From positions 1,052 through 65,051 of the forward strand of contig JAFQFH010000001.1 of the NCBI GenBank assembly GCA_017398685.1: DNA of 64,000 nt. The letters are read 5' to 3'. Below, piece by piece: positions 28,372 through 41,745 of the stretch (position 1 is the first letter of the stretch; every line of letters begins with the position of its first letter). Source of the stretch: Oscillospiraceae bacterium (GTDB lineage Bacteria; Bacillota; Clostridia; Oscillospirales; Oscillospiraceae). Below the pieces are notes generated by a model, which saw only the letters and a list, made by a program, of their open reading frames with translations, was not told where the DNA came from and did not search any database. A program made the translations under genes and the position numbers.

Positions 28372-29916
28372 ATGGCCAAATATGACATAGTCGTCGTAGG
28401 CGCGGGTAACTCCGGTCTGTCTGCGGCGCTGCAAAGCCAGATAGCAGGCAAAAAGACCCTGCTTATCGAACAGCACAACCTGCCCGGCGGCGCTGCCACC
28501 AGCTTTGTGAGAGGTCGCTTTGAGATAGAGCCCTCCCTCCACGAGCTGTGTGACTTCGGCCCTGCCGAAAACCCCGGCGACGTTAGAAATCTTCTGGACT
28601 CCTACGGCGTAAAGGTCAACTGGTGCGAGTGCCCCGACTGCTTCAGAATTATCACTGAGGGCTCTGACGGCAAGCTGCTGGATGCCACCATGCCCGCAGG
28701 CATCGAAAACTTCATCGACGCAATGGAGAAGGAAGTTCCCGGTTCCCGTCCCAAGATGGAAGAGCTTTTCGAGCTTTTCGACGAGGTACTGCGCGGTATT
28801 GCCTACATCTCCGCCTCTGCCGGCAAGGCCGACTCCAAGGTGCTGCAGGCAGACTACCCCAACATGCTTCGCACCGGTGCTTATTCCACCCAGAAGGTAT
28901 TTGACGCACTGAAGCTGCCCAAGAAGTGCCAGGACATCCTTGCAACCTACTGGAGCTATCTGGGCGTTGACCTTGAGCATCTGGCATTCATCCACTACGC
29001 TGCAATGGTACATAAGTACGTAAGCCGCGGCGCATACATCCCCGCCCACACCTCCCACGAGCTTTCCACCGCCATGGTGGAGCGTTTCCGTGAGCTGGGC
29101 GGCGACGTTTGGTTCAACTGCCGTGCTGAAGAGTTCCTCTTTGACGGAGATCGCCTCTGCGGCATCAAGACCAACATGGGCCATATCGAATGTGACTATG
29201 TGCTGGCAAACATCAACCCCGACATCATCTACGGCAAGATGATTCCCAAGGAGCTTGTTCCCGAGCGCGAAAAGAAGCTCTCCGCTGCCCGCGACAGAAA
29301 GATGGGCGGCCGTATGTTCACCGCATACTTCTGCTGCGACAAATCCGCTGAAGAGCTGGGCATCAAGGACTACTCCATATTCCTCTCCGGTCATGCAGAT
29401 TCCGCACAGGAATATAAGGACCTGCTGGGCGGCATCAAGACCAACGACTACTCCATCTTCCTCTGCTACAATATTGCAAATCCCGGCTTCTCCCCCGAAG
29501 GCACCTGCGTGTGCTCCTTCACTACCTTCGGCTCTCCCGTGGACTGGAACGACCTTCCTCAGGAAGAATATTTCCAGTTTAAAAACCAGTTTGCCAAGAA
29601 GTTCCTCAAGAGCCTCAAGGACAAGGCCGGCATAGAGCTGGAAGGCCATATCGAGGAAATGGCAGTTGCCACTCCCTGGACCTTTGCCCGCTACCTCAAC
29701 GCCCCCGAAGGCGCAGTTTACGGCTACGAGACTACCGACTGGGACGGCATGATGGCCCGTCTCCAGATGCTGGCTACCGACTACCCCATCAAGGGTCTCA
29801 GACCCATCGGCGCCGCCGGTCCCAGAGGCGACGGCTACTCCGCAGCAATGCTCACCGGCCAGCTGATGGCAAGACTTGCCATCAAGGATCTCAGCGAAGA
29901 AGGAGGTAACAAGTAA
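28372..29916 (+). CDS. FAD-dependent oxidoreductase, phytoene-desaturase (CrtI)-like family
   Basis: The dinucleotide-binding N-terminus is YDIVVVGAGNSGLSAAL....GKK.LLIEQHN.PGG. Length is 514 aa. Confidence 0.85.
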   Translation: MAKYDIVVVGAGNSGLSAALQSQIAGKKTLLIEQHNLPGGAATSFVRGRFEIEPSLHELCDFGPAENPGDVRNLLDSYGVKVNWCECPDCFRIITEGSDGKLLDATMPAGIENFIDAMEKEVPGSRPKMEELFELFDEVLRGIAYISASAGKADSKVLQADYPNMLRTGAYSTQKVFDALKLPKKCQDILATYWSYLGVDLEHLAFIHYAAMVHKYVSRGAYIPAHTSHELSTAMVERFRELGGDVWFNCRAEEFLFDGDRLCGIKTNMGHIECDYVLANINPDIIYGKMIPKELVPEREKKLSAARDRKMGGRMFTAYFCCDKSAEELGIKDYSIFLSGHADSAQEYKDLLGGIKTNDYSIFLCYNIANPGFSPEGTCVCSFTTFGSPVDWNDLPQEEYFQFKNQFAKKFLKSLKDKAGIELEGHIEEMAVATPWTFARYLNAPEGAVYGYETTDWDGMMARLQMLATDYPIKGLRPIGAAGPRGDGYSAAMLTGQLMARLAIKDLSEEGGNK

Positions 29917-31121
29917 TGGCACTTAACGTTAAAGTGGGCCTTATCGGCAAGTTCGACATGCTCAAGTTCAAGAACATGAAGAAAGTCCGCGAGCAGGCCA
30001 TTCAGGCAGCCCCCGCCAAAGAGATCAGCGGTGACTTCGCCATAAACATCAATGCGAAAAATCTCCACCCCGACTGCATGGAGCTGGTCATCGACCAGAT
30101 AATCGACCACGGCAGCGCCAATGCCAAGAGCTTTGTGTTCAAGCGCGCCGACGGCAAGCCCTTCCCCTATTTCAGAGCAGGCCAGTACCTCTCTCTCAAG
30201 CTGCCCATTGGTGACAGCTTCGTCACCCGCTCCTACTCTTTGTGCTCCTCCCCCAAGTGGGCACTGGATGGCAGGGCAGCCATTACCATCCGCTCCAACC
30301 CCGGCGGATATGCAGCGGACATTCTCCTTGAGACTCTCAAGGTGGGCGACAAGGTCATATCCTCCGATCCTCAGGGCTTTTTCTACTATGAGGACCTGAG
30401 AGACAAGAAGACCGTTGTAGGTCTTGCAGGCGGCTCCGGTATCACCCCCTTCCTCTCCATGGCCTACGCCATCCGCGACGGCATTGAGGACTTTGAGCTT
30501 ATTCTCCTTTACGGCAGCCGCGATGAGGCCAACATTCTCTTCAAGAAAGAGCTGGATGAGATTGCCGCAGCCTGCCCCAAGTTCAAGGTCATCCATGTTC
30601 TCTCCGATGAGAAGAAGGAAGGCTACGAAAACGGCTTTATCACCGCAGAGCTTATAAAGAAGTACGCCCCCGAAGAGTACTCCGTGTACCTGTGCGGTCC
30701 CGAGGCCATGTACAAGTTCCTCAAGCCCGAGATTGCAAAGCTGGGTCTGCCCGAGCGTCTCTTCCGCCGCAAGATGATAGACGTTACAAAGACCGTATGG
30801 GAGTGCGAGAATTACCCCATTGATGCCAAGGATAAGGTCTTTGACATGACCGTAAAGCAGGGCGCTGCCGAGTACAAGATAAAGTGCGCCGCCAACGAGC
30901 CTATTCTGGTTGCCCTTGAGCGCGCCGCCATCAAGGCTCCCTCCCGCTGCCGCAGCGGTGAATGCGGCTGGTGCCGTTCCAAGCTCATCTCCGGCAATGT
31001 GTTCGTTCCCAAAGAAAACGAGCTGCGCCGCTGGGCCGACATTGCCTATGGCTACATTCATCCCTGCTCAAGCTTTGCACTGAGTGATATAGTTCTGGAA
31101 GTACCCGGCGAATACTACTAA
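29916..31121 (+). CDS. Ferredoxin-NAD(P)+ reductase-like flavoprotein fused to a C-terminal plant-type 2Fe-2S ferredoxin
   Basis: RSYSLCSSP (RxYS FAD motif), GGSGITP (NAD motif) and CRSGECGWCRS...HPCSSF (a 2Fe-2S cysteine set). Its start shares one nucleotide with the upstream stop. Confidence 0.85.
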   Translation: MALNVKVGLIGKFDMLKFKNMKKVREQAIQAAPAKEISGDFAININAKNLHPDCMELVIDQIIDHGSANAKSFVFKRADGKPFPYFRAGQYLSLKLPIGDSFVTRSYSLCSSPKWALDGRAAITIRSNPGGYAADILLETLKVGDKVISSDPQGFFYYEDLRDKKTVVGLAGGSGITPFLSMAYAIRDGIEDFELILLYGSRDEANILFKKELDEIAAACPKFKVIHVLSDEKKEGYENGFITAELIKKYAPEEYSVYLCGPEAMYKFLKPEIAKLGLPERLFRRKMIDVTKTVWECENYPIDAKDKVFDMTVKQGAAEYKIKCAANEPILVALERAAIKAPSRCRSGECGWCRSKLISGNVFVPKENELRRWADIAYGYIHPCSSFALSDIVLEVPGEYY

Positions 31122-31131
31122 AATCAACCAA

Positions 31132-31163
31132 AGGGACGGGTGCATACCCGTCCCTGTTTTTTT
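31132..31163 (+). terminator. Rho-independent terminator abutting the next start codon
   Basis: agggacggg-tgcata-cccgtccct followed by GTTTTTTT. Confidence 0.8.
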
Positions 31164-31167
31164 GATT

Positions 31168-32493
31168 ATGGATAATGTCAAGGAAGAAAAGCAAATACTG
31201 GCCGAGTCTCTGGCGAAGGATATTCTGACCCTGGCGCGAAATTCACTTATCGTCAATTTCCGCTTTCTGGACAGAGCCATATCCTGTGCCCCCTTTGTCT
31301 GCAACGATAATGTGAGCCTTGCCACCGACGGGGAGAGCATCTACTACTCCCCCTGGTTTATCCTGCACATTTACAAGGCTGAGCAAAAGTGCGTGGCAAG
31401 GGATATACTCCACTGTCTTTTCCACTGCATTTTCCGACACAATCTCATGGAGCAGAAGCTGGATATGCCAAGATGGGATCTGGCCTGCGACATTGCGGTG
31501 GAGCACGCCATAAATCAGCTTCACTCCCCCGCTCTCCACGCGGCAAGGGAAGTCCGACAGCAGGCCACAATCGCCATGCTTGAGGATAAGCTGGGGCTTA
31601 TCACGGCGGAGCGGGTATACAAATGGCTGGGCGACATGGAGATAAGCGAGGAAGAGCTTATTGCCCAGCGGGAGAGCTTCAAAGCCGACGGCCACGCCAT
31701 ATGGTACGGGGAAAATGACCCCAATGCCAAAAAGGACAGCAAAATAAACCTCAAAAAGATATGGAAAGAGGTCTCCAAGCGGATGCAGACCGAGCTTGAG
31801 ACTATGAACAAGGACAAAAACAGCGCCCTTGTGCAAAATCTCAAAAGTCTCAACCGCTCCCGCTACAGCTACACGGAGTTTCTAAGGCGCTTTGGCATGC
31901 GCGGTGAGGTGATGCGCCTTTCCGAGGACGAGTTTGACCAGAACTACTACAGCTACTCCATGGAGCTTTACGGCAATATCCCCCTCATCGAGCCGCTGGA
32001 ATACTCCGAGCAAAAGCGTATCCGTGAATTTGTCATCGCCATCGACACCTCCGGCAGCGTGAAGGGCGATGTGGTGCAGTCTTTCATACAGCACACCCAC
32101 GACATACTCCAGCGGCAAGAAAACTTCTTTACGAGGGTGAATATGCACATCATCCAGTGCGACGACAGGATAAGGGAGGATGTTTGCATACACAGCAAGG
32201 AGGAATTTGACCAATATCTCAAAACCATGGAGATACTGGGCCTTGGAAAAACGGATTTTCGCCCTGTATTTGAATATGTGGATGAGCTTATTCGCACAAA
32301 GGAGCTTTCAAATTTGCAGGGCCTTATATATTTTACCGACGGTAAAGGTACTTTTCCCCACGTACAGCCCAAGTATGACACCGCCTTTATTCTCCACAAC
32401 GACGGCTATGCCGAGGCGGAAGTCCCCTCATGGGCCATGCACCTTACTTTAAGTGAGGAGGATATACTTGACAAAAGATTTTCAGCTTATTGA
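31168..32493 (+). CDS. Zincin-like N-domain + VWA domain protein (DUF2201_N/DUF2201-type)
   Basis: The N-terminal region has a His-rich helix (LHCLFHCIFRH). The C-terminal VWA has an intact MIDAS start (VIAIDTSGSV). The ATG at 31168 (TTG alternative at 31162) has no visible SD. Confidence 0.8.
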   Translation: MDNVKEEKQILAESLAKDILTLARNSLIVNFRFLDRAISCAPFVCNDNVSLATDGESIYYSPWFILHIYKAEQKCVARDILHCLFHCIFRHNLMEQKLDMPRWDLACDIAVEHAINQLHSPALHAAREVRQQATIAMLEDKLGLITAERVYKWLGDMEISEEELIAQRESFKADGHAIWYGENDPNAKKDSKINLKKIWKEVSKRMQTELETMNKDKNSALVQNLKSLNRSRYSYTEFLRRFGMRGEVMRLSEDEFDQNYYSYSMELYGNIPLIEPLEYSEQKRIREFVIAIDTSGSVKGDVVQSFIQHTHDILQRQENFFTRVNMHIIQCDDRIREDVCIHSKEEFDQYLKTMEILGLGKTDFRPVFEYVDELIRTKELSNLQGLIYFTDGKGTFPHVQPKYDTAFILHNDGYAEAEVPSWAMHLTLSEEDILDKRFSAY

Positions 32494-33319
32494 CGGGGTG
32501 CTTACCATTGCCCCCGGCACAGCATATATAAAAAGTCAGCAGTTCAGCGAAAACCCGGAGATCCGGAAAATAATCATCCCCGAGGGCGTGGGCTTTATGG
32601 AGGATGAGGCCTTTGCCGAGTGCGAGGCACTGGAAGAGGTCATACTCCCAGAGGGGCTTGTGAACATCAGTGTGGCGGCCTTTGCCTCCTGCGTGTCGCT
32701 TAGGGAGATAAATATTCCTTCCACCGTAAAGAGCATTGAGGACGGGGCCTTTCTCTTCTGTGAGAGTTTGCAGAGCATAGAGCTGCCCGAAGGGCTTGAG
32801 GAAATATCCTCTCTCGCTTTTCAAAGCAGCGGGCTTGAGAGCATAAGCGTGCCTGCAACGGTGAAGAGCATCGGGGAAGAGGCTTTCTTTGAGTGCCCGT
32901 CCCTTATGCACGCGGATGTGCTGGGCCATGAGACAAGGATAGGGCTCAATGCCTTTGGCAGCAACTATGCCCTTCTCTCCGGCTTTATCGCTCCCGGCTA
33001 CCCTCAGCTTGAGCAGAGCGGCTCGTCGGAGCTTTTGTACACCCTTTTGTGGTGCTCCTGCCCGGAAAAGCACAGTGAGGCCACCACAAAAAGAGCTGAG
33101 AGCTTCATCCACTCTCAGGAGGCGCTTATAATGGAGCGCATTTTGAAAATGAACAATATCCCCGCCATGACCGGCCTGGCCCAGCGTGGCCTGCTGGCGG
33201 CGGCGAATATAGACAAGTACCTGAAAGCTGCGCTCAGCGCAGGCCAGACGGAGATCAGCGCCCTTTTACTCAAAGCAAAGGCCGTAAGCGGCATTGATGA
33301 GGAGGAATTTGAACTATGA
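32468..33319 (+). CDS. Cytoplasmic BspA-type leucine-rich-repeat protein
   Basis: Five or six repeats of about 23 aa fit the pattern I.IP..V..I...AF..C..L. There is no signal peptide and the C-terminus is helical. The TTG at 32468 lies 6 nt after GAGGAGG (GTG alternative at 32453). It overlaps both neighbours. Confidence 0.78.
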   Translation: MTKDFQLIDGVLTIAPGTAYIKSQQFSENPEIRKIIIPEGVGFMEDEAFAECEALEEVILPEGLVNISVAAFASCVSLREINIPSTVKSIEDGAFLFCESLQSIELPEGLEEISSLAFQSSGLESISVPATVKSIGEEAFFECPSLMHADVLGHETRIGLNAFGSNYALLSGFIAPGYPQLEQSGSSELLYTLLWCSCPEKHSEATTKRAESFIHSQEALIMERILKMNNIPAMTGLAQRGLLAAANIDKYLKAALSAGQTEISALLLKAKAVSGIDEEEFEL

Positions 33320-34776
33320 ATATAGCCGAAGCGAAAGAACAGATAAAAAACGCCATGACCGCCTACTTCACAAAGGACGAGTTCGGCAATTTCCTCATCC
33401 CCCCCGAAGCCCAGCGCCCTGTTTTTCTGATGGGGCCTCCGGGCATAGGCAAGACCGCCATAATGAAGCAGATTGCCCATGAGCTGGGCGTGGGGCTTGT
33501 GAGCTACTCCATGACCCACCACACCCGCCAGAGTGCACTTGGTCTGCCGGTTATAGTGCACAAGGACTACGGTGGGGAGGACTACGCCGTTTCCGAGTAC
33601 ACTATGTCGGAAATCATAGCCTCCGTTTATGATATGATAGAAAAGGGCGGGGTGAAAAACGGCATACTCTTCCTTGACGAGATAAACTGCGTGTCCGAAA
33701 CGCTCACCCCCACCATGCTTCAGTTCTTGCAGTACAAAACCTTCGGCAAGCACGCCGTACCTCCCGGATGGATAGTGGTGACGGCTGGCAATCCCCTTGA
33801 GTATAACCGCAGCGCAAGGGAATTTGACATTGTAACATGGGACAGATTAAAGCGCATCGACATTGAGCCGGACTACGGCGCATGGCGGGAATTTGCTTTG
33901 AAAAAGGGCGTACACGCCGCCATACTCAGCTACCTTGAGGCAAGACGGGAAAACTTCTACCGGGTGGAGCTGAGCGTTGAGGGCAAGCACTTTGTGACAG
34001 TGCGAAGCTGGACGGATTTAAGCGACATGATAAAGCTTTATGAGCTGAATAACTTGCCCGTGGACAAGCTGCTTATAGCCCAATACGTGCAGGACAGGGA
34101 CATTGCCGAGGACTTTGCCGTATACTACGAGCTTTTCAACAAATATAAGTCCGACTATAAGATAGAGCTTATTCTCAGCGGCAAGGCCCCTGCCGATATT
34201 GAGCAGCGCGCTGCCAGTGCAGGCTTTGACGAAAGGCTCAGCCTCATAGGGCTGATGCTGGACAGGCTCCACACGGATGTGCGCGCCGTCATGGAGACGG
34301 AGGATGTGATATCCGAGCTTCTGCCCATACTCAAAGAGGTCAAGGCCGGCGCTGCCCTTGCCGATAAGCTTGAAAGCCTGAAAGCCCAGAAGCAGCGCGA
34401 GGAAAGGCGGGGTACCCTCTCCCCCGAAAGGCTCAGGCAGTATGAGCGTATGCTTGCCTTCATGTCAGGGCATGAGTCCAGAGGCTCAGATTTTCCCTCC
34501 ATCAAGGCAGACTTTGACGGCATGGTCGCCGCCATGCGTTCCGATGCCGCAGCTGCAAAAGGCAAGATGGAAGCTATGCTCGCCTTTGCCGAAAGGGTCT
34601 GGCCGGAGGGACAGGAGATGCTGATACTTGTGACGGAGCTTACCATAAGCTGGTACGCCGCCCGCTTTATCTCCCGCTACGGCTGCGAAAGCTACTACAG
34701 GCACAATGAGGAGCTTATGCTCTATGAGAGACATTCAAGGATTATAAGCCAGCTGAATATTCTGGAAGAACTGTAA
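33316..34776 (+). CDS. MoxR-like AAA+ ATPase (AAA_5 type) with a long C-terminal helical extension
   Basis: Walker A is LMGPPGIGKTAI, Walker B is ILFLDEIN, and sensor 1 is VVTAGNP. The roughly 230-aa A/E/R-rich tail has no family I recognise. Confidence 0.85.
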   Translation: MNIAEAKEQIKNAMTAYFTKDEFGNFLIPPEAQRPVFLMGPPGIGKTAIMKQIAHELGVGLVSYSMTHHTRQSALGLPVIVHKDYGGEDYAVSEYTMSEIIASVYDMIEKGGVKNGILFLDEINCVSETLTPTMLQFLQYKTFGKHAVPPGWIVVTAGNPLEYNRSAREFDIVTWDRLKRIDIEPDYGAWREFALKKGVHAAILSYLEARRENFYRVELSVEGKHFVTVRSWTDLSDMIKLYELNNLPVDKLLIAQYVQDRDIAEDFAVYYELFNKYKSDYKIELILSGKAPADIEQRAASAGFDERLSLIGLMLDRLHTDVRAVMETEDVISELLPILKEVKAGAALADKLESLKAQKQREERRGTLSPERLRQYERMLAFMSGHESRGSDFPSIKADFDGMVAAMRSDAAAAKGKMEAMLAFAERVWPEGQEMLILVTELTISWYAARFISRYGCESYYRHNEELMLYERHSRIISQLNILEEL

Positions 34777-34852: not shown

Positions 34853-35797
34853 ATGAAGAAAATTATTGCATTTTTGCTGTGTGTCATGATGCTGGCAAGC
34901 TTCGCTAGCTGCTTTGCTGATGAGGGCACTCAGTTCGCCCGCGCCCACGTTATCGGCGCAGGCAACCGTTTCAGCGTGGGCGTACGCTGCGACGGCAAGA
35001 TCCTTGTCAAGGGCGGTATGAACGAGAACGTCTATGACCAGGAAAAGGTCAGGGAATGGACGGATATCGTATCTTTGGATGTGGGCACCAACCACATAGT
35101 CGGCCTTAAGTCCAACGGCAGAGTTGTGGCCGCCAGCGAGAGCAATTCCTCTACCCTTTGTGCAGTCAACCACTGGGTCGATATCGTGGCCGTGATTGCC
35201 GGCCATGACTTCACTCTCGGCCTTAAGGACGACGGTACCATCGTTTCCACCAAGGAAGGTTATCTGGAAGACTGGTTCAGAATTATTGATATTGACGCCG
35301 GACGCTGGCAGACCGTCGGTCTGAGAGAAAACGGCAAGGTCATCGCAGACGGTCCCAACCAGTACGGCGAATGCAATGTTGAAAACTGGAGCGACATCGT
35401 TTCCATCGCCGCCGGCACCTGGCATACTGTGGGTCTTAAGTCCGACGGTACCGTGGTGGCTGTGGGCGGTAACGAGGTTGACGAGTGCGAGGTATCCAGC
35501 TGGAGCAAGATCGTGGCCATTGCCGCAGGTCAGCGCTTCACCGTTGGCCTTCGCGCTGACGGCACTGTGCTGGCTATCGGCGACAACAGTGAAGGTCAGT
35601 GCGAAGTGTCCGACTGGACCGATATCGTGGCTATCTCCGCCAGCGACAAGCACATAATAGGCCTCAAGGCAGACGGCACCGTTGTCACAACCGGCAAGGA
35701 CTATTACGGCGAGTGCAGCCTTGGCGGCTGGACAGACATGACCATGCCCGCAGACTTGCCCGCAGACCTTCTCTATAACTACAGCGTAGCCTGGTAA
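34853..35797 (+). CDS. RCC1-like repeat (beta-propeller) lipoprotein
   Basis: The signal peptide has a lipobox (LASFASC). There are about seven repeats of W.DIV.I.AG..HTVGLK.DGTVVA.G.N..G.C.V. Confidence 0.8.
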   Translation: MKKIIAFLLCVMMLASFASCFADEGTQFARAHVIGAGNRFSVGVRCDGKILVKGGMNENVYDQEKVREWTDIVSLDVGTNHIVGLKSNGRVVAASESNSSTLCAVNHWVDIVAVIAGHDFTLGLKDDGTIVSTKEGYLEDWFRIIDIDAGRWQTVGLRENGKVIADGPNQYGECNVENWSDIVSIAAGTWHTVGLKSDGTVVAVGGNEVDECEVSSWSKIVAIAAGQRFTVGLRADGTVLAIGDNSEGQCEVSDWTDIVAISASDKHIIGLKADGTVVTTGKDYYGECSLGGWTDMTMPADLPADLLYNYSVAW

Positions 35798-35810
35798 AAC
35801 AATATAATGT

Positions 35811-35841
35811 AAAAGCTCCCAAGCGTTACTTGGGAGCTTTT
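35811..35841. terminator. Bidirectional terminator
   Basis: aaaagctcccaag-cgtta-cttgggagctttt. Confidence 0.85.
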
Positions 35842-36449
35842 ACTCTTTCTGAGATTGTTTTAAATCCAGTATGGATAAGATAGAGTGCCACAACGGCGGA
35901 GCCTGCCTTATCCAGCCAGTAGGAGATCGCCGAACCCGGCAGCAAGGTCACGGACAGCAGGGCCGCCGTGACGCAGATATCCACAAGGGTCTTGGCACGG
36001 TAGAGCCTGCTTTGCACCAAAAGGATGCTGTTATTGCTCTCTTTCCCAAGGCGGCTGTAGCGCCGCCAGAAGATGGAGTTTGCGATAACGCCGAGAATGG
36101 CAATGCTCAGGCCGGGGATTACATTGCCGGTCTCACCCGTTGAGGGCAGCAGCGCCAGAACGAGCATCATTGCCCCGCCAAGGCACATAGCCCCGCCCAC
36201 GAAAAGGTCGGTATTTTTCTCAAGCCTTGCTTTTCTCTCCATATCGGTAAAGCCGTCACGGGTGGTAAGCTGATAGACCACATAGGACACTATTATTGCC
36301 AGAAGCTCCGCACTGCGGCGCACAAAGTCCGCAATCTGGGTGGAGCTTCTGCCCATTACAAGGCCAATTCCAACCACAAGAGGGCCGGGTGAGGACATTA
36401 TAACCGACCACAAAAGCGTATTTCTTCCGGATTTATTCTTATTTTTCAT
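35826..36449 (-). CDS. Cation-diffusion-facilitator-like membrane protein (transmembrane domain only)
   Basis: It is 207 aa with six TM helices and a CDF-like pattern. The usual C-terminal cytoplasmic domain is missing. Confidence 0.6.
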   Translation of the reverse strand: MKNKNKSGRNTLLWSVIMSSPGPLVVGIGLVMGRSSTQIADFVRRSAELLAIIVSYVVYQLTTRDGFTDMERKARLEKNTDLFVGGAMCLGGAMMLVLALLPSTGETGNVIPGLSIAILGVIANSIFWRRYSRLGKESNNSILLVQSRLYRAKTLVDICVTAALLSVTLLPGSAISYWLDKAGSAVVALYLIHTGFKTISERVKAPK

Positions 36450-37281: not shown

Positions 37282-37340
37282 CTCTCGAATGATTTTTAAG
37301 CCGATACGGGATATTGGCAAGGTCTGACGCGGAGGCAATT

Positions 37341-38555
37341 ATGGCAACACCTGAAAAAAGCAAAATGAATATCCGCTGCATTGGTATTGACGAGGCCTCA
37401 GTATTTGCATTTCTGGCAAAGGAGTGTCTCGATATTTTTGACCCCGAAAAAGAATACGTTGTTTTTCCCGGCTTTTGTGATGTGCATGTACATTTCAGAG
37501 AGCCGGGTTTTTCGTACAAAGAAACCATCGCCACCGGCTCAAAGGCAGCGGCAGCAGCGGGCTACACCTGTGTTTGCACCATGCCCAATCTCTCCCCTGT
37601 GCCGGACTCCATGGAAACGCTGGCTTTGCAGCTTGAAAAGATTGAAAAGGACGCACTTATCCGCGTTATCCCCTATGGCGCAATCAGCCGGGGAGAGCTT
37701 GGCAAGGAGCTTGCCGACATGGAGGCAATGGCAGATCTGGTCTGTGCCTTTTCCGATGACGGCAGAGGTGTGCAGGACGGTGAGATGATGCGCGCCGCGA
37801 TGCTGAAAGCGAAGGCGCTTGGGAAGCCCATCGCCGCCCACTGCGAGGTAAACGAGCTGTTGAAAGGTGGCTACATCCACGACGGAGTCTATGCGGCAGC
37901 GCACGGACACCGGGGCATCTGCTCTGAGAGTGAGTATGAGCAGATTGCAAGGGACATTGAGCTTGTGCGTGAAACGGGCTGCCCCTACCATGTGTGCCAC
38001 ATCTCCACAAAGGAGAGCGTGGAGCTTATACGAAAGGCAAAAGCCGAGGGGCTGGACATAAGCTGTGAGACAGGGCCGCACTACCTTGTGCTCTGCGACG
38101 AGGACCTTCAGGAAGACGGACGCTTCAAGATGAACCCGCCCTTAAGGTCAAAAGAGGACAGGGCGGCGCTCATAGAGGGCATACTGGACGGCACTATCGA
38201 CATGATAGCCACCGACCATGCCCCCCACTCCGCCGAGGAAAAAGGCCGGGGGCTTGAAAAGAGCGCCATGGGCATAGTGGGGCTTGAAACCGCCTTCCCC
38301 ATTCTCTACACCCACTTTGTGAAAAAAGGCATACTGAGCCTTGAAAAGCTCTCAGAGCTTATGCACAAAAATCCCCTTGAGCGCTTCCGGCTGCCGGTGG
38401 GCAAGGATATGTGCATATTTGAACTGAGCGAGGAATACAGCATTGAGCCGGAGGAGTTTTTCTCCATGGGCCGTGCCACGCCCTTTGCGGGCAATAAAGT
38501 ATATGGCCGCTGCGTACTGACGGTCATGGACGGTAAGACAGTATATAGAGCATAG
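37341..38555 (+). CDS. pyrC: Dihydroorotase
   Basis: PGFCDVHVHFREPG, a cyclic-amidohydrolase fold, and DHAPH. The ATG at 37341 lies 5 nt after GGAGG. Confidence 0.9.
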   Translation: MATPEKSKMNIRCIGIDEASVFAFLAKECLDIFDPEKEYVVFPGFCDVHVHFREPGFSYKETIATGSKAAAAAGYTCVCTMPNLSPVPDSMETLALQLEKIEKDALIRVIPYGAISRGELGKELADMEAMADLVCAFSDDGRGVQDGEMMRAAMLKAKALGKPIAAHCEVNELLKGGYIHDGVYAAAHGHRGICSESEYEQIARDIELVRETGCPYHVCHISTKESVELIRKAKAEGLDISCETGPHYLVLCDEDLQEDGRFKMNPPLRSKEDRAALIEGILDGTIDMIATDHAPHSAEEKGRGLEKSAMGIVGLETAFPILYTHFVKKGILSLEKLSELMHKNPLERFRLPVGKDMCIFELSEEYSIEPEEFFSMGRATPFAGNKVYGRCVLTVMDGKTVYRA

Positions 38556-38574
38556 AGCTTCGGGAGGATATGAA

Positions 38575-41500
38575 ATGGCTAAGAGAACAGACCTTAAAAA
38601 GATAATGATAATCGGCTCCGGCCCCATCGTCATCGGTCAGGCTGCCGAGTTTGACTATGCAGGCACTCAGGCCTGCCTCGCATTGAAAGAAGAGGGCTAT
38701 GAGGTTGTGCTTTGCAACTCAAACCCCGCCACCATCATGACCGACACCACCATCGCCGACAAGGTGTACATGGAGCCGCTGACCCTTGAATACATTGCAA
38801 AGATACTCCGCTACGAGCGTCCCGACGCCATCATCCCCGGCATCGGCGGCCAGACCGGCCTTAACCTTGCCATGCAGCTTGAAAAGAAGGGCATACTGCG
38901 CGAGTGTCAGGTGGAGCTTCTTGGCACTTCCGGCGAGAGCATTGAGCGGGCCGAGGACCGCGAAATGTTCAAGGAGCTTTGCCAGGAGATAGGCGAGCCT
39001 GTCATCCCCTCAAAGATAACCTACAGCGTGGAAGAGGCCAAGGCCGCAGCCGCCGAGATAGGCTACCCTGTTGTGCTGCGCCCCGCCTTCACCCTCGGCG
39101 GCACCGGCGGCGGCTTTGCCTACAACGAAGAGGAGCTTATAGAGGTGGGCATGAACGCCTTCAAGCTCTCTCCCGTTCATCAGGTGCTCATTGAAAAGAG
39201 CGTGAAGGGCTACAAGGAAATAGAGTTTGAGATGATGCGCGACAGCGAGGACAAGGTCATCACTATCTGCGGCATGGAGAATGTTGACCCTGTGGGCGTG
39301 CACACCGGTGACTCCATCGTGGTGGCCCCCATACTCACCCTCAACGACCATGACCTTAAAATGCTCAACGACAGCGCCATAAAGCTTATAAAAGCCCTTA
39401 AGATAGAAGGCGGCTGCAACGTGCAGTTTGCCCTTGACCCCAACAGCAGCCAGTACTACCTTATCGAAGTCAACCCCCGCGTGTCCCGCTCCTCTGCTCT
39501 CGCCTCCAAGGCCAGCGGCTACCCCATTGCTAAGGTAACGGCCAAGATCGCCGTGGGCATGAGCCTTGACGAGATACCCCTTGCCAACACCACTGCTGCC
39601 AGAGCTCCCGTGCTGGACTACATCGTGGCAAAGCTCCCCCGTTTCCCCTTTGACAAGTTTGCCTCCGCCTCCAACAAGCTGGGCACCCAGATGAAGGCTA
39701 CCGGCGAGGTCATGGGCATTGGCAGCAATCTGGAAGAGTGCCTTCTCAAGTCCGTGCGCTCTCTGGAGATAGGCGCCTGCCACTTCCATCTGCCCAAATT
39801 TGACGGCATGAGCGTAAGTGAGCTTGAAGAGTATATTGCCGCTTTCCGGGATGACAATATCTTTGCCATTGCCCAGCTTATGCGCTTTGGCGTGTCCGTT
39901 GAGCGTATCCACGGCATCACCCAGATAACCGCCTACTTCCTTGAGGCCATTGAGCGGATAGTGAAGATGGAGCAGGAGCTGAAGGACAATATAAACAGTC
40001 TTGAGGTTCTCACCCGGGCCAAGAAAATGGGCTTTAGCGACAAGTTTGTTGCAAAGCTGTGGCGGCTGGAAGAGCTTGAGGTATTCAACTACCGCAAGGC
40101 CAAGGGACTTATGCCCGTTTACCGCATGGCGGACACCTTCCACACCGGGGCATACATCCCCTACTTCTATTCCTCCTACTCTGAGGAAAACCGCTCCGTG
40201 GTCAGCGATAAGGAAAAGATCATCGTCCTTGGCGCAGGCCCCATCCGTATCGGTCAGGGCGTGGAGTTTGACTATTCCAGCGTACACGCCGTCATGACCA
40301 TCAAGGAAAGCGGCTACGAAGCCATTATCATAAACAATAACCCCGAGACCGTCTCCACAGACTACACCTGCTCCGACAAGCTCTATTTCGAGCCTTTGAC
40401 CACTGAGGATGTAGCCAATATCATTGAGCTTGAAAAGCCCCTTGGCGTTATCGCAACTCTCGGCGGCCAGACCGCTATCAATCTGGCAGAGCCTCTGATG
40501 AAGCGGGGCGTAAAGCTCATCGGTACCGACTGCGCCGCCATAGACCGGGCCGAGAACCGGGACAGCTTTGAAAAGCTCCTTGAAGAGCTGAATATCCCCC
40601 AGCCCATGGGCAGAGCCGTCACCAACGTGGAGGCCGGTGTGGAGGCCGCCGCAAAGATCGGCTACCCGGTACTTGTGCGCCCCAGCTTCGTGCTGGGCGG
40701 CAGAGCCATGCAGATAGTTGCCAATGAAGAGCAGCTTCGCTCTTATCTCAGAACCGCCGTTGAAATTGACGAGGATCGCCCCGTACTGGTGGACAAGTAT
40801 ATTCAGGGCCGCGAGGTTGAGGTGGATGCCGTATGCGACGGCCGTGACGTATTCGTCCCCGGTATCATGGAGCTTGTGGAGCGCACCGGCGTACACTCCG
40901 GCGACTCTATCTCCGTATACCCCACCTTCTCCATATCCGACAAGGTGAAGGGCACCATCCTCACCTACACCAAGAAGCTGGGTCTGGGTATCGGCATTGT
41001 TGGTCTTTACAATATCCAGTTCATCGTGGACAAGAACGACAATGTATATATAATCGAGGTCAATCCCCGTTCCTCCCGCACAGTTCCCTTCCTCTCCAAG
41101 TCCACCGGCTACTGCCTTGCCGACATCGGCACCCTTTGCATGCTGGGGCTGAGCCTTAAGGAACAGGGCATATTCGACCTCTACCCCACGGACAAGAAGA
41201 AATGGTACGTAAAAGTGCCCGCCTTCTCCTTCTCCAAGCTTCACGGCATGGATGCCTACCTCTCCCCGGAGATGAAGTCCACCGGCGAGGCCATAGGCTA
41301 CGACAAGAAGCTCAACCGCGCCCTGTACAAGGCTTTGCAGGCTTCCGGCATGCAGGTTATGAACTACGGCACCGTGCTTGTCACCATTGCCGACAAGGAC
41401 AAGGAAGAGGCCCTGCCTCTTATCCGCCGCTTCTACAATCTGGGCTTCAACATTGAAGCTACCTACGGCACCGCCGTATTCCTCAAGGAGCACGGCATAC

Positions 41501-41745
41501 GCACCCGTGTCAAGAAGAAGCTGAGCGAGGGCAGCGAGGAAATTCTGGAGTCCATCCGTCAGGGCCACGTGACCTATGTCATAAACACCAAGGACTACAG
41601 TTCCGGCAACTATCAGGACGGCGGCCTTATCCGCCAGTGCGCCGTTGAAAACGGTGTGACCATCTTCACAGCTCTCGACACCGTGCGTGTGCTGCTGGAC
41701 GTGCTGGAAGAGATCACTATGGAGATTTCCACCATTGACTCCTGA
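38575..41745 (+). CDS. carB: Carbamoyl-phosphate synthase large subunit
   Basis: The N-terminus is IMIIGSGPIVIGQAAEFDYAGTQA. It has duplicated ATP-grasp halves and is 1056 aa long. Confidence 0.97.
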   Translation: MAKRTDLKKIMIIGSGPIVIGQAAEFDYAGTQACLALKEEGYEVVLCNSNPATIMTDTTIADKVYMEPLTLEYIAKILRYERPDAIIPGIGGQTGLNLAMQLEKKGILRECQVELLGTSGESIERAEDREMFKELCQEIGEPVIPSKITYSVEEAKAAAAEIGYPVVLRPAFTLGGTGGGFAYNEEELIEVGMNAFKLSPVHQVLIEKSVKGYKEIEFEMMRDSEDKVITICGMENVDPVGVHTGDSIVVAPILTLNDHDLKMLNDSAIKLIKALKIEGGCNVQFALDPNSSQYYLIEVNPRVSRSSALASKASGYPIAKVTAKIAVGMSLDEIPLANTTAARAPVLDYIVAKLPRFPFDKFASASNKLGTQMKATGEVMGIGSNLEECLLKSVRSLEIGACHFHLPKFDGMSVSELEEYIAAFRDDNIFAIAQLMRFGVSVERIHGITQITAYFLEAIERIVKMEQELKDNINSLEVLTRAKKMGFSDKFVAKLWRLEELEVFNYRKAKGLMPVYRMADTFHTGAYIPYFYSSYSEENRSVVSDKEKIIVLGAGPIRIGQGVEFDYSSVHAVMTIKESGYEAIIINNNPETVSTDYTCSDKLYFEPLTTEDVANIIELEKPLGVIATLGGQTAINLAEPLMKRGVKLIGTDCAAIDRAENRDSFEKLLEELNIPQPMGRAVTNVEAGVEAAAKIGYPVLVRPSFVLGGRAMQIVANEEQLRSYLRTAVEIDEDRPVLVDKYIQGREVEVDAVCDGRDVFVPGIMELVERTGVHSGDSISVYPTFSISDKVKGTILTYTKKLGLGIGIVGLYNIQFIVDKNDNVYIIEVNPRSSRTVPFLSKSTGYCLADIGTLCMLGLSLKEQGIFDLYPTDKKKWYVKVPAFSFSKLHGMDAYLSPEMKSTGEAIGYDKKLNRALYKALQASGMQVMNYGTVLVTIADKDKEEALPLIRRFYNLGFNIEATYGTAVFLKEHGIRTRVKKKLSEGSEEILESIRQGHVTYVINTKDYSSGNYQDGGLIRQCAVENGVTIFTALDTVRVLLDVLEEITMEISTIDS

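Follow-up and report, generated by a model that had tools for sequence, protein, structure and literature searches.

A 64,000-nucleotide stretch of DNA from an Oscillospiraceae bacterium (GenBank assembly GCA_017398685.1, contig JAFQFH010000001.1, positions 1,052 to 65,051 of the forward strand; the whole stretch is called the window, and positions are counted from its first letter) carries three overlapping genes encoding a zincin-like/von Willebrand factor A (VWA) protein (gene 1), a leucine-rich repeat (LRR) protein (gene 2) and a MoxR-like AAA+ ATPase (gene 3). Comparison of related loci indicates that the LRR gene is conserved as an integral third partner alongside the VWA and AAA+ genes, and that the third component is marked throughout the family by an ankyrin-like module ending in an acidic tail. 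We consider it about an even call that gene 2-type LRR and ankyrin proteins are exchangeable receptors that dock a target onto a MoxR-VWA remodeller, the three proteins together making up a self-contained cytoplasmic machine.

Recurrence of the LRR gene beside the VWA/AAA+ pair

One genome per species was scanned, revealing at least 595 relatives of the ATPase, and the best 80 of these at least 595 loci, with ATPase identities of 50-64%, were taken and searched with the window's own proteins as queries. The sampled taxa were Oscillospiraceae, Lachnospiraceae, Acutalibacteraceae, Eubacteriaceae and Peptococcaceae, and also Eggerthellaceae. The VWA gene adjoined the ATPase gene in nearly all 80 loci, and the same-strand cluster held an LRR_5 gene in about 57 of the 76 mapped loci of other species, compared with a background of 1.6% outside the clusters (12 LRR-like genes among 742, several of which abut a cluster). 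In four loci from Eggerthellaceae, the VWA gene is directly adjoined by a divergent LRR gene, and Pfam assigned LRR_5 to 78 of the 80 partners. An earlier note on this DNA, made from the letters alone, had proposed the LRR protein as the third part of a machine and a tabulation of how often an LRR gene accompanies AAA and VWA homologs; the LRR proved conserved in that tabulation, in keeping with the proposal. The family as a whole is large: at 90% identity it comprises more than 8,000 clusters, and relatives occur in at least 595 genomes at species level from gut and rumen anaerobes.

The partner varies in position (between the enzymes, after the ATPase or before the VWA gene), in size (about 230-1,280 aa) and in copy number, with up to five same-strand copies in one cluster. 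In loci without an LRR gene, the slot holds ankyrin-repeat proteins (L009, L019, L011), DUF6273 proteins (L057, L062) or unassigned helical proteins. Tandem arrays occur at L012:3814-18521 (five partners in the cluster and three further module-bearing paralogs downstream), L029:165-9971 (five partner genes) and L054:1590-9998 (four). The tandem paralogs are old, with 30-45% identity, and those of L054 are 54-84% identical in the module described below and as little as 30% in the remainder. At depth, divergence follows the order AAA+ (54-62% identity), VWA (40-57%) and LRR (32-50%).

Some loci and partners have additional parts. Some partners add DUF4132 (three), BRCT (three) or zinc-ribbon domains to LRR_5; DUF4132 presumably also occurs beside the E. 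coli MoxR-VWA genes YehL/YehP. In some loci, small extra genes of 150-190 aa separate the ATPase gene from that of the LRR partner (L011:9426-10004, L025:1324-1860, L033:6418-6930, L012:7751-8281 and L008:1902-2351) and are of two types, one soluble (…YENYKEQFKRLNRAL…) and one with an N-terminal transmembrane helix. The one that was searched, from L025, had no Pfam match, and these genes may be additional components in those clades. In L080 (6365-8471 and 11521-13059), a DUF4140/DUF4139 protein follows the ATPase and two module carriers lacking detectable LRRs lie upstream.

A module shared by the partner proteins

By reading the C-termini of the partners and then building a hidden Markov model (HMM) iteratively, we found a module of about 58 aa that no Pfam model covers. 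Its consensus, IKKNDIAALRLLLELGLLTAENIDELLERAIEAGATEITALLLEYKNEHFGEKDAEDEFEL (in short form …AIEAGATEITALLLEYKN…DEFEL), consists of an ankyrin-like helical part, an acidic linker and a terminal hydrophobic-x-Leu. In gene 2 it makes up the last 58 residues, the tail ending in …EEEFEL, and gene 2 was the sole match among the open reading frames of the 64-kb window (E 2e-17). The module is common to LRR-type, ankyrin-type and unassigned-type partners, and was carried by 93 of the 1,223 genes in 81 loci: 40 carriers lie between the VWA and AAA genes and 36 flank the pair at no more than 100 nt, while almost all of the remainder belong to tandem arrays or adjoin the pair directly. Sixty copies are C-terminal; 53 of these end in hydrophobic-x-Leu, with acidic residues at -2 and -4 to -6, and Leu is the final residue in 41. 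A search of 5.8 billion proteins with the module profile returned 10 tiny fragments and nothing else. The ankyrin-like module is the signature of the third component across the family, and we infer that it acts as a docking element onto the VWA/AAA+ engine. Another candidate for a universal dock, an N-terminal helical 'ELGEVEMSAPALGLACRF' module, was rejected, being confined to eight loci.

The distribution of the module also bears on the possibility that the triad is an accident of adjacency or annotation, with gene 2 an unrelated surface-protein gene that happens to lie between the two partners. LRR_5 genes are indeed common in gut Clostridia. However, the LRR recurs in the same-strand clusters far above background, the start and stop codons overlap and are coupled, the genes are under purifying selection, and those LRR proteins of the same loci that have a signal peptide lack the partner-specific module. 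This explanation has a negligible probability and is refuted by the recurrence of the locus and the distribution of the module.

Gene 2 itself has a strong LRR_5 match (188.9 bits against a Pfam cut-off of 27.7), with five clear BspA-type units and one degenerate, where the earlier note had counted five or six. Its N-terminus is not hydrophobic (score 1.35, versus 2.74 for the neighbouring lipoprotein), and because 80 of 83 partner LRR proteins have no signal peptide, the partners are a cytoplasmic lineage, as had been claimed for gene 2, in contrast to typical surface BspA proteins. The repeat family, LRR_5, is the same, but gene 2 has neither signal peptide nor anchor and carries the ankyrin-like module and tail. 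In the library that was searched, no paper ties LRR_5/BspA proteins to MoxR/VWA systems, and DUF2201, which is essentially unstudied, was mentioned only in four unrelated papers.

Coupling of the three genes

The open reading frames, domains and motifs of three overlapping same-strand genes were all found where the earlier note had placed them. The four Pfam families that it had named for profile searches (DUF2201_N, DUF2201, LRR_5 and AAA_5) all matched above their gathering cut-offs, which are the thresholds used for the domain calls reported here (Table 1). The stop codon of gene 1 lies inside gene 2 in another frame, 41 nt past the GTG and 26 nt past the TTG start, and a GAGGAGG ribosome-binding site precedes the TTG at 32468 by 6 nt. 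The gene 2 stop and the gene 3 start share the ATGA at 33316-33319, a 4-nt overlap, again preceded by GAGGAGG. From these overlapping starts and stops and the ribosome-binding sites, the three genes are translationally coupled. The 441-aa form of gene 1 and the 283-aa form of gene 2 are the versions picked by gene callers on identical public contigs. The arrangement is far above chance level, and the same triad was seen again in dozens of species.

Table 1. Features of the triad and of its upstream flank, in window positions
Feature	Position	Strand	Evidence or remark
CrtI/CrtD-family flavoprotein	28372-29916	+	Pfam and NCBIfam matches
FNR-[2Fe-2S] reductase, PaaE/BenC-type	29916-31121	+	Pfam and NCBIfam matches
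GC-rich hairpin followed by a T-run, between the FNR stop (31121) and gene 1	31132..31155	+	fold energy -23 kcal/mol
Gene 1, DUF2201-family zincin-like/VWA cofactor, 441 aa	31168 (ATG)..32493	+	alternative TTG start at 31162
DUF2201_N zincin-like domain	31282..31674	+	Pfam match, motif census, conservation
Putative metal-site helix, L81-H91 (LHCLFHCIFRH)	31408-31440	+	within the DUF2201_N domain
Linker from zincin-like to VWA domain, residues 177-285	31696..32022	+	pLDDT below 50, probably flexible
VWA domain with complete MIDAS	32032..32451	+	Pfam match, conservation, fold search
Gene 2, cytoplasmic LRR_5 partner, 283 aa	32468 (TTG)..33319	+	GTG at 32453 as the other possible start
LRR array, five canonical BspA-type units (residues 35-149) and one degenerate (150-173)	32570..32986	+	
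Ankyrin-like module and acidic C-terminal tail, residues 226-283, LKMNNIPAMTGLAQRGLLAAANIDKYLKAALSAGQTEISALLLKAKAVSGIDEEEFEL	33143..33316	+	own HMM
Gene 3, MoxR-like (AAA_5) AAA+ ATPase, 486 aa	33316..34776	+	
All-helical C-terminal extension of the ATPase, residues ~280-486	34153..34773	+	AlphaFold, conservation

The zincin-like/VWA protein and its phage relatives

Gene 1 matched both families of the PF13203 and PF09967 pair, DUF2201_N (35.4 bits, cut-off 23.2) and the VWA-like DUF2201 (51.3 bits, cut-off 26.4). The His-rich helix LHCLFHCIFRH at residues 81-91 and the start of the MIDAS (an adhesion site that depends on a metal ion), IAIDTSGS at residues 290-297 of the 441-aa protein, are both present as originally read. 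Across the family, the zincin helix reads L-H-x-x-x-H-C-x-x-x-H with H82, H86 and H91 invariant, and D108 and E112 (31501-31503) are invariant on the following helix, giving a conserved His3/Cys/Asp/Glu set at the putative metal site. Of the 68 family variants, 66 lack the catalytic Glu of HExxH, the window having Cys instead (HCLFH), whereas phage homologs retain HExxHxxxxH (e.g. HETWH and HELLH). The alignment shows a reciprocal swap between the two groups, HExxH … ACDxxIN in the phages and HxxxH … ACDxAVE112 in the bacterial clade. By conservation, the metal site (H82, H86, H91, D108 and E112) is constrained and its canonical general base lost. A proteolytic effector role for this domain, which the earlier note had considered, is unlikely because the catalytic Glu is missing family-wide while the phage homologs keep HExxH. 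We nevertheless withhold a certain verdict of 'catalytically dead' because Glu112 is invariant, and this residue could conceivably compensate for the lost Glu.

In some long gene 1 homologs, the linker between the two domains has grown to about 400 aa, and the gain in length is confined to it. The MIDAS of the VWA domain is made up of D293-T-S295-G-S297 (32044-32058), T362 (32251-32253) and D391 (32338-32340), and D293, S295, S297, T362 and D391 are conserved at 97-100% among homologs. A fold search with the predicted model of the C-terminal half recovered the integrin I-domain fold (target template modelling (TM) score about 0.6), and a sequence search of solved structures gave no match for the VWA protein. 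The protein stops about 10 residues past the VWA domain.

The closest known relatives of both enzymes are encoded by phages. Jumbo phages carry a MoxR and a metallopeptidase-vWA gene pair, whose products are proposed to act as chaperones in the assembly and processing of structural proteins (Iyer et al. 2021, PMC7824862). The gene 1 protein has a full-length homolog there (phrog_1314, E 8.7e-39), likewise with a zincin-like N-domain followed by VWA, and the AAA+ core has one as well (phrog_1297, E 1.1e-37); the two genes are adjacent in N4-like phages. In contrast to the bacterial clade, which has HxxxH and has gained Glu112, the phages keep HExxH, their ATPase (338 aa) lacks the helical tail of about 200 aa, the gene order is reversed, and there is no LRR or ankyrin partner; the window locus is chromosomal with housekeeping flanks. 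The comparison points to a clear evolutionary path from a phage metallopeptidase-vWA assembly chaperone to a cellular system in which the catalytic Glu of the protease was lost. A phage location of close homologs (44-57% identical, in records named 'Bacteriophage sp.') was rejected, as the contigs are unverified and the longest is a bacterial chromosome fragment. These records, such as L086 (MT835935.1), are unverified sequences from human fecal viromes and could mislead analyses of phage association; fragments of the L086 type carry genes for an ABC exporter, a radical S-adenosylmethionine (SAM) protein, an M18 peptidase and a Mur ligase beside LRR-VWA-AAA.

The AAA+ ATPase

Gene 3 matched AAA_5 (36.5 bits, cut-off 22) and also AAA, with a marginal match to bpMoxR (28.5 bits, cut-off 27). 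Walker A (GPPGIGKT, residues 40-47; 33433-33456), Walker B (LFLDE, residues 118-122; 33667-33681) and sensor 1 (N159) are intact, as the earlier reading had it, and at least 90% conserved among 78 homologs. A conserved insert, 63-SYSMTHHTRQSALGLP-78 (33502-33549), sits where the helix-2 insert is found; together with a predicted beta-hairpin at 80-93 it falls between beta2 and alpha2, where the predicted local distance difference test (pLDDT) of the model is 40-50. The C-terminal tail that had been noted as helical is predicted by AlphaFold to be an all-helical extension of about 200 aa, in which long helices form a bundle (pLDDT about 90), with a variable middle (331-420) and a conserved end (421-480). 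A Foldseek search for the ATPase tail gave only generic AAA+ matches of low TM score, led by dynein and NorQ, because the shallow alignment of 15 sequences yielded a poor model of the core. Among solved structures, the best sequence match was Midasin, around the P-loop only. Gene 3 encodes a MoxR-class AAA+ ATPase, which presumably assembles as a hexamer. One homolog (P0132, 792 aa) has a C-terminal class I SAM-dependent methyltransferase domain.

Selection, genomic context and a possible role in conflict

The ratios of nonsynonymous to synonymous substitution rates (dN/dS) against two close relatives were 0.060 and 0.100 for the VWA gene, 0.058 and 0.077 for the LRR gene, and 0.065 and 0.063 for the AAA+ gene. 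All three genes are under purifying selection, and in the window lineage the LRR protein is as constrained as both enzymes. A search against PADLOC-DB 2.0 gave only P-loop-level IetA matches (E 6e-5 or weaker), with the VWA and LRR proteins unmatched. The 130 nearest flanking genes contained isolated singleton defence matches with no defence-island signal, and otherwise belonged to a mixture of housekeeping and redox families. When 619 flanking genes were clustered, no family-wide neighbour emerged; the earlier note had seen no client enzyme near the triad, and across the family no single known client enzyme is linked consistently. An apparent ABC-F neighbour in 14 loci was an artefact of single-linkage clustering, the same protein being present in three loci at a distance of 4.6-6.4 kb. 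Plasmids held no close homologs, only distant MoxR genes, and no effector domain was recognised among the module proteins. The triad lies in neither a defence island nor a mobile element, and its surroundings are not a fixed metabolic operon either.

These results bear on a role in immunity or conflict, which the earlier note had raised. In such a system, the LRR and ankyrin proteins would sense an invader, such as a phage, and the AAA+/VWA pair would set the threshold of the response, as in the MoxR-vWA ternary conflict systems, whose third component is VMAP, iSTAND, FtsH, a beta-propeller or TERNS3 (Kaur et al. 2020/2021, PMC7159879, PMC8195603). The window family shares with these a MoxR and vWA core joined to a system-specific third component, as well as the marginal bpMoxR match. 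Its third component differs between loci in the type of domain, in size, in position and in the number of copies (as many as five in tandem), the LRR diverges fastest at depth, the genomic context shifts even between moderately related genomes, and both enzymes have phage homologs, all of which speaks for a sensor of this kind. We nevertheless regard a conflict sensor as unlikely. There is no recognisable effector, the zincin lacking its catalytic Glu; the database and flank searches gave no defence signal; the dN/dS of the LRR gene (0.058-0.077) equals that of the ATPase; and the tandem paralogs are old. In addition, the hallmarks of the described ternary systems are missing: LRR_5, Ank and DUF6273 fall outside the described types of third component, the P-loop is the canonical GPPGIGKT while GxxxTAKS characterises the beta-propeller and FtsH types, the vWA protein has no beta-propeller, the hosts are gut Clostridia and Eggerthellaceae and not multicellular bacteria, and neither the flank scan nor dN/dS gave a conflict signature. 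Every testable defining feature of the systems of Kaur et al. is absent from the window family, as judged from its proteins and loci.

The redox pair and other flanking genes

The flanks of the triad had been described as unrelated, including a redox pair upstream, the CrtI-like flavoprotein and FNR-[2Fe-2S] reductase of Table 1. For the redox pair this description did not hold: it accompanies most full-length loci of the subclade with a small LRR protein (~282 aa) in three arrangements, being upstream on the same strand (the window, L007, L066, L087, L088, L091 and L092), upstream in divergent orientation beside a GntR regulator (L090, and as a second copy in L014 and L018), or downstream and overlapping the ATPase stop by 22 nt (L005, L006, L014 and L018). 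The outer flanks of the pair and triad differ in every arrangement. A GntR/FCD regulator often accompanies the redox pair. The hairpin between the reductase gene and gene 1 keeps its position in L091, L092, L087, L088 and L007 (60-95% AAA+ identity) while its stem sequences differ, and is probably a leaky terminator or attenuator within a polycistron. The gap that holds it leaves no room for a separate promoter, and the simplest reading is that redox pair and triad are co-transcribed by read-through of the hairpin. The pair is possibly a client or co-regulated enzyme in the window subclade.

A narrower explanation is that in this subclade the triad serves the maturation or activation of the flavoprotein/FNR-[2Fe-2S] pair, much as classical MoxR-VWA chaperones serve metalloenzymes, with the LRR protein as an enzyme-specific adaptor. 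Besides the co-occurrence in three arrangements with unrelated outer flanks and the conserved hairpin without promoter space, the single strongly constrained LRR protein and the conserved putative metal site of gene 1 would suit such a role. However, the pair is absent from L089 and from all the other sampled clades whereas the LRR partner occurs family-wide, it has no known chaperone requirement, and its co-travel might reflect a co-mobilised block. We consider this explanation quite improbable; it is compatible with the receptor model set out below.

After the ATPase gene comes a gene for an exported RCC1-repeat (beta-propeller) lipoprotein (34853-35797), followed by the next terminator at 35809-35843. 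The weak bpMoxR match and the absence of a terminator before 35809 were the lead for considering it a fourth component. This candidate was rejected, as only relatives with 94% AAA+ identity or more have it, and L087-L090 and the 80 other loci all lack it; it probably rides on the same transcript as a passenger specific to the lineage. From 37314-41745 onward, the downstream flank is a housekeeping cluster for pyrimidine biosynthesis (dihydroorotase, carbamoyl-phosphate synthase large subunit, PyrK/PyrD, orotidine monophosphate (OMP) decarboxylase, PyrE and aspartate carbamoyltransferase).

Discussion

The model that we favour, with confidence no better than evenly divided, assigns the three proteins as follows. 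The gene 1 protein would be the VWA cofactor of the gene 3 ATPase, its MIDAS being intact, and the gene 2 protein an exchangeable receptor in which a variable scaffold (LRR_5 in the window, and ankyrin, DUF6273 or others in further loci) is linked to the family-specific module. The LRR surface would bind a target protein, the module and tail would tether the receptor to the MoxR-VWA engine, and ATP hydrolysis would remodel the captured target in the manner of NorQ/NorD, CbbQ/CbbO and Midasin. The window subclade would have one small, strongly constrained LRR receptor, with the flavoprotein/FNR pair as the best candidate for a target or co-regulated partner.

For the contact between receptor and engine, the most plausible arrangement is that an acidic residue of the tail, or its terminal carboxylate, completes the metal coordination of the MIDAS; alternatively, the tail may sit in the peptide groove of the zincin-like domain. 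The sixth ligand of a MIDAS comes from the target or from an unstructured peptide, and the VWA domain docks on the MoxR ring (PMC13036017, PMC7159879). In Midasin, as cited in PMC13036017, the MIDAS captures an acidic residue of interchangeable assembly-factor ligands, the ubiquitin-like (UBL) domains of Ytm1 and Rsa4. The acidic tail is likely a MIDAS ligand by analogy, because MIDAS sites take their sixth ligand from an acidic residue of a partner or from an unstructured peptide. Midasin/Rea1 is also of the AAA_5 class and the best sequence match among solved structures; it differs in being a eukaryotic giant that fuses six AAA modules in a single polypeptide, and in having UBL ligands instead of LRR or ankyrin proteins.

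Alternatively, the LRR and ankyrin proteins may be clients or cargo that the machine would unfold, assemble, store or hand over, with the hydrophobic-x-Leu tail as a tag for the AAA+ pore or the zincin-like groove. The conserved motif at the extreme C-terminus resembles C-terminal recognition tags, several partner genes can belong to one engine, and the phage relatives have themselves been proposed as chaperones of assembly and processing (PMC7824862). On the other hand, neither a conserved component for membrane attachment or secretion nor a downstream acceptor lies in the loci, a tag at the end of the chain does not fit the module copies that are internal, and LRR and ankyrin repeats are classic binding scaffolds with no obvious need of a dedicated remodeller. 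We judge this alternative improbable.

Several observations count against the receptor model. Thirty-seven module copies are internal, so that the tail cannot be the sole contact. The prediction of a conserved dock with a diversified surface was not confirmed, because in multi-paralog loci the module identity between tandem paralogs is 42% and that of the remainder 38%. A Rosetta-stone search found no fusion of the partner with VWA or AAA+ among the homologs. The redox pair, as the best candidate target, is absent from L089 and from all other sampled clades (about 70 loci). Finally, the sequences would fit adaptor and client roles of the LRR protein alike.

A broader form of the receptor model, which we regard as possible but doubtful, is that the family represents a widespread 'receptor-exchange' AAA+ machine of gut Clostridia and Eggerthellaceae, in which cytosolic LRR and ankyrin receptors attach through a dock and a MIDAS-ligating tail. 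Such a machine might be used for targeted protein remodelling, or for intracellular surveillance of a new kind. It would have arisen from a phage assembly chaperone with its protease disabled, and would be a bacterial equivalent of eukaryotic adaptors such as the F-box/LRR receptors on SCF ligases and the UBX adaptors on p97.

NorQ/NorD, CbbQ/CbbO and RavA/ViaA are MoxR-VWA chaperones for metalloenzymes and respiratory complexes. The window system resembles them in its AAA_5/MoxR-like ATPase with an adjacent VWA gene, in the DxSxS-T-D MIDAS and in the flexible linker between N-domain and VWA, and NorQ was among the top structural matches. It differs in having a receptor-like extra subunit and no family-wide client, in the zincin-derived N-domain of its VWA protein and in the long helical tail of its ATPase, and there was no significant sequence match to these systems beyond the P-loop region.

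Few AAA+ systems are as widespread, or as little understood, as the MoxR-VWA pairs, for which the open question is that of target choice. The MoxR-VWA-LRR trio is a widespread family with no literature of its own, combining a known logic with a new third component. Target recognition here is apparently outsourced to separate, exchangeable LRR and ankyrin proteins with a recognisable module and tail, which give experimental handles in the form of tail peptides, MIDAS mutants and receptor swaps. Should the flavoprotein/FNR pair be functionally linked to the triad, the locus would also point to a redox enzyme of gut Oscillospiraceae, so far uncharacterised, that requires a remodeller of its own.

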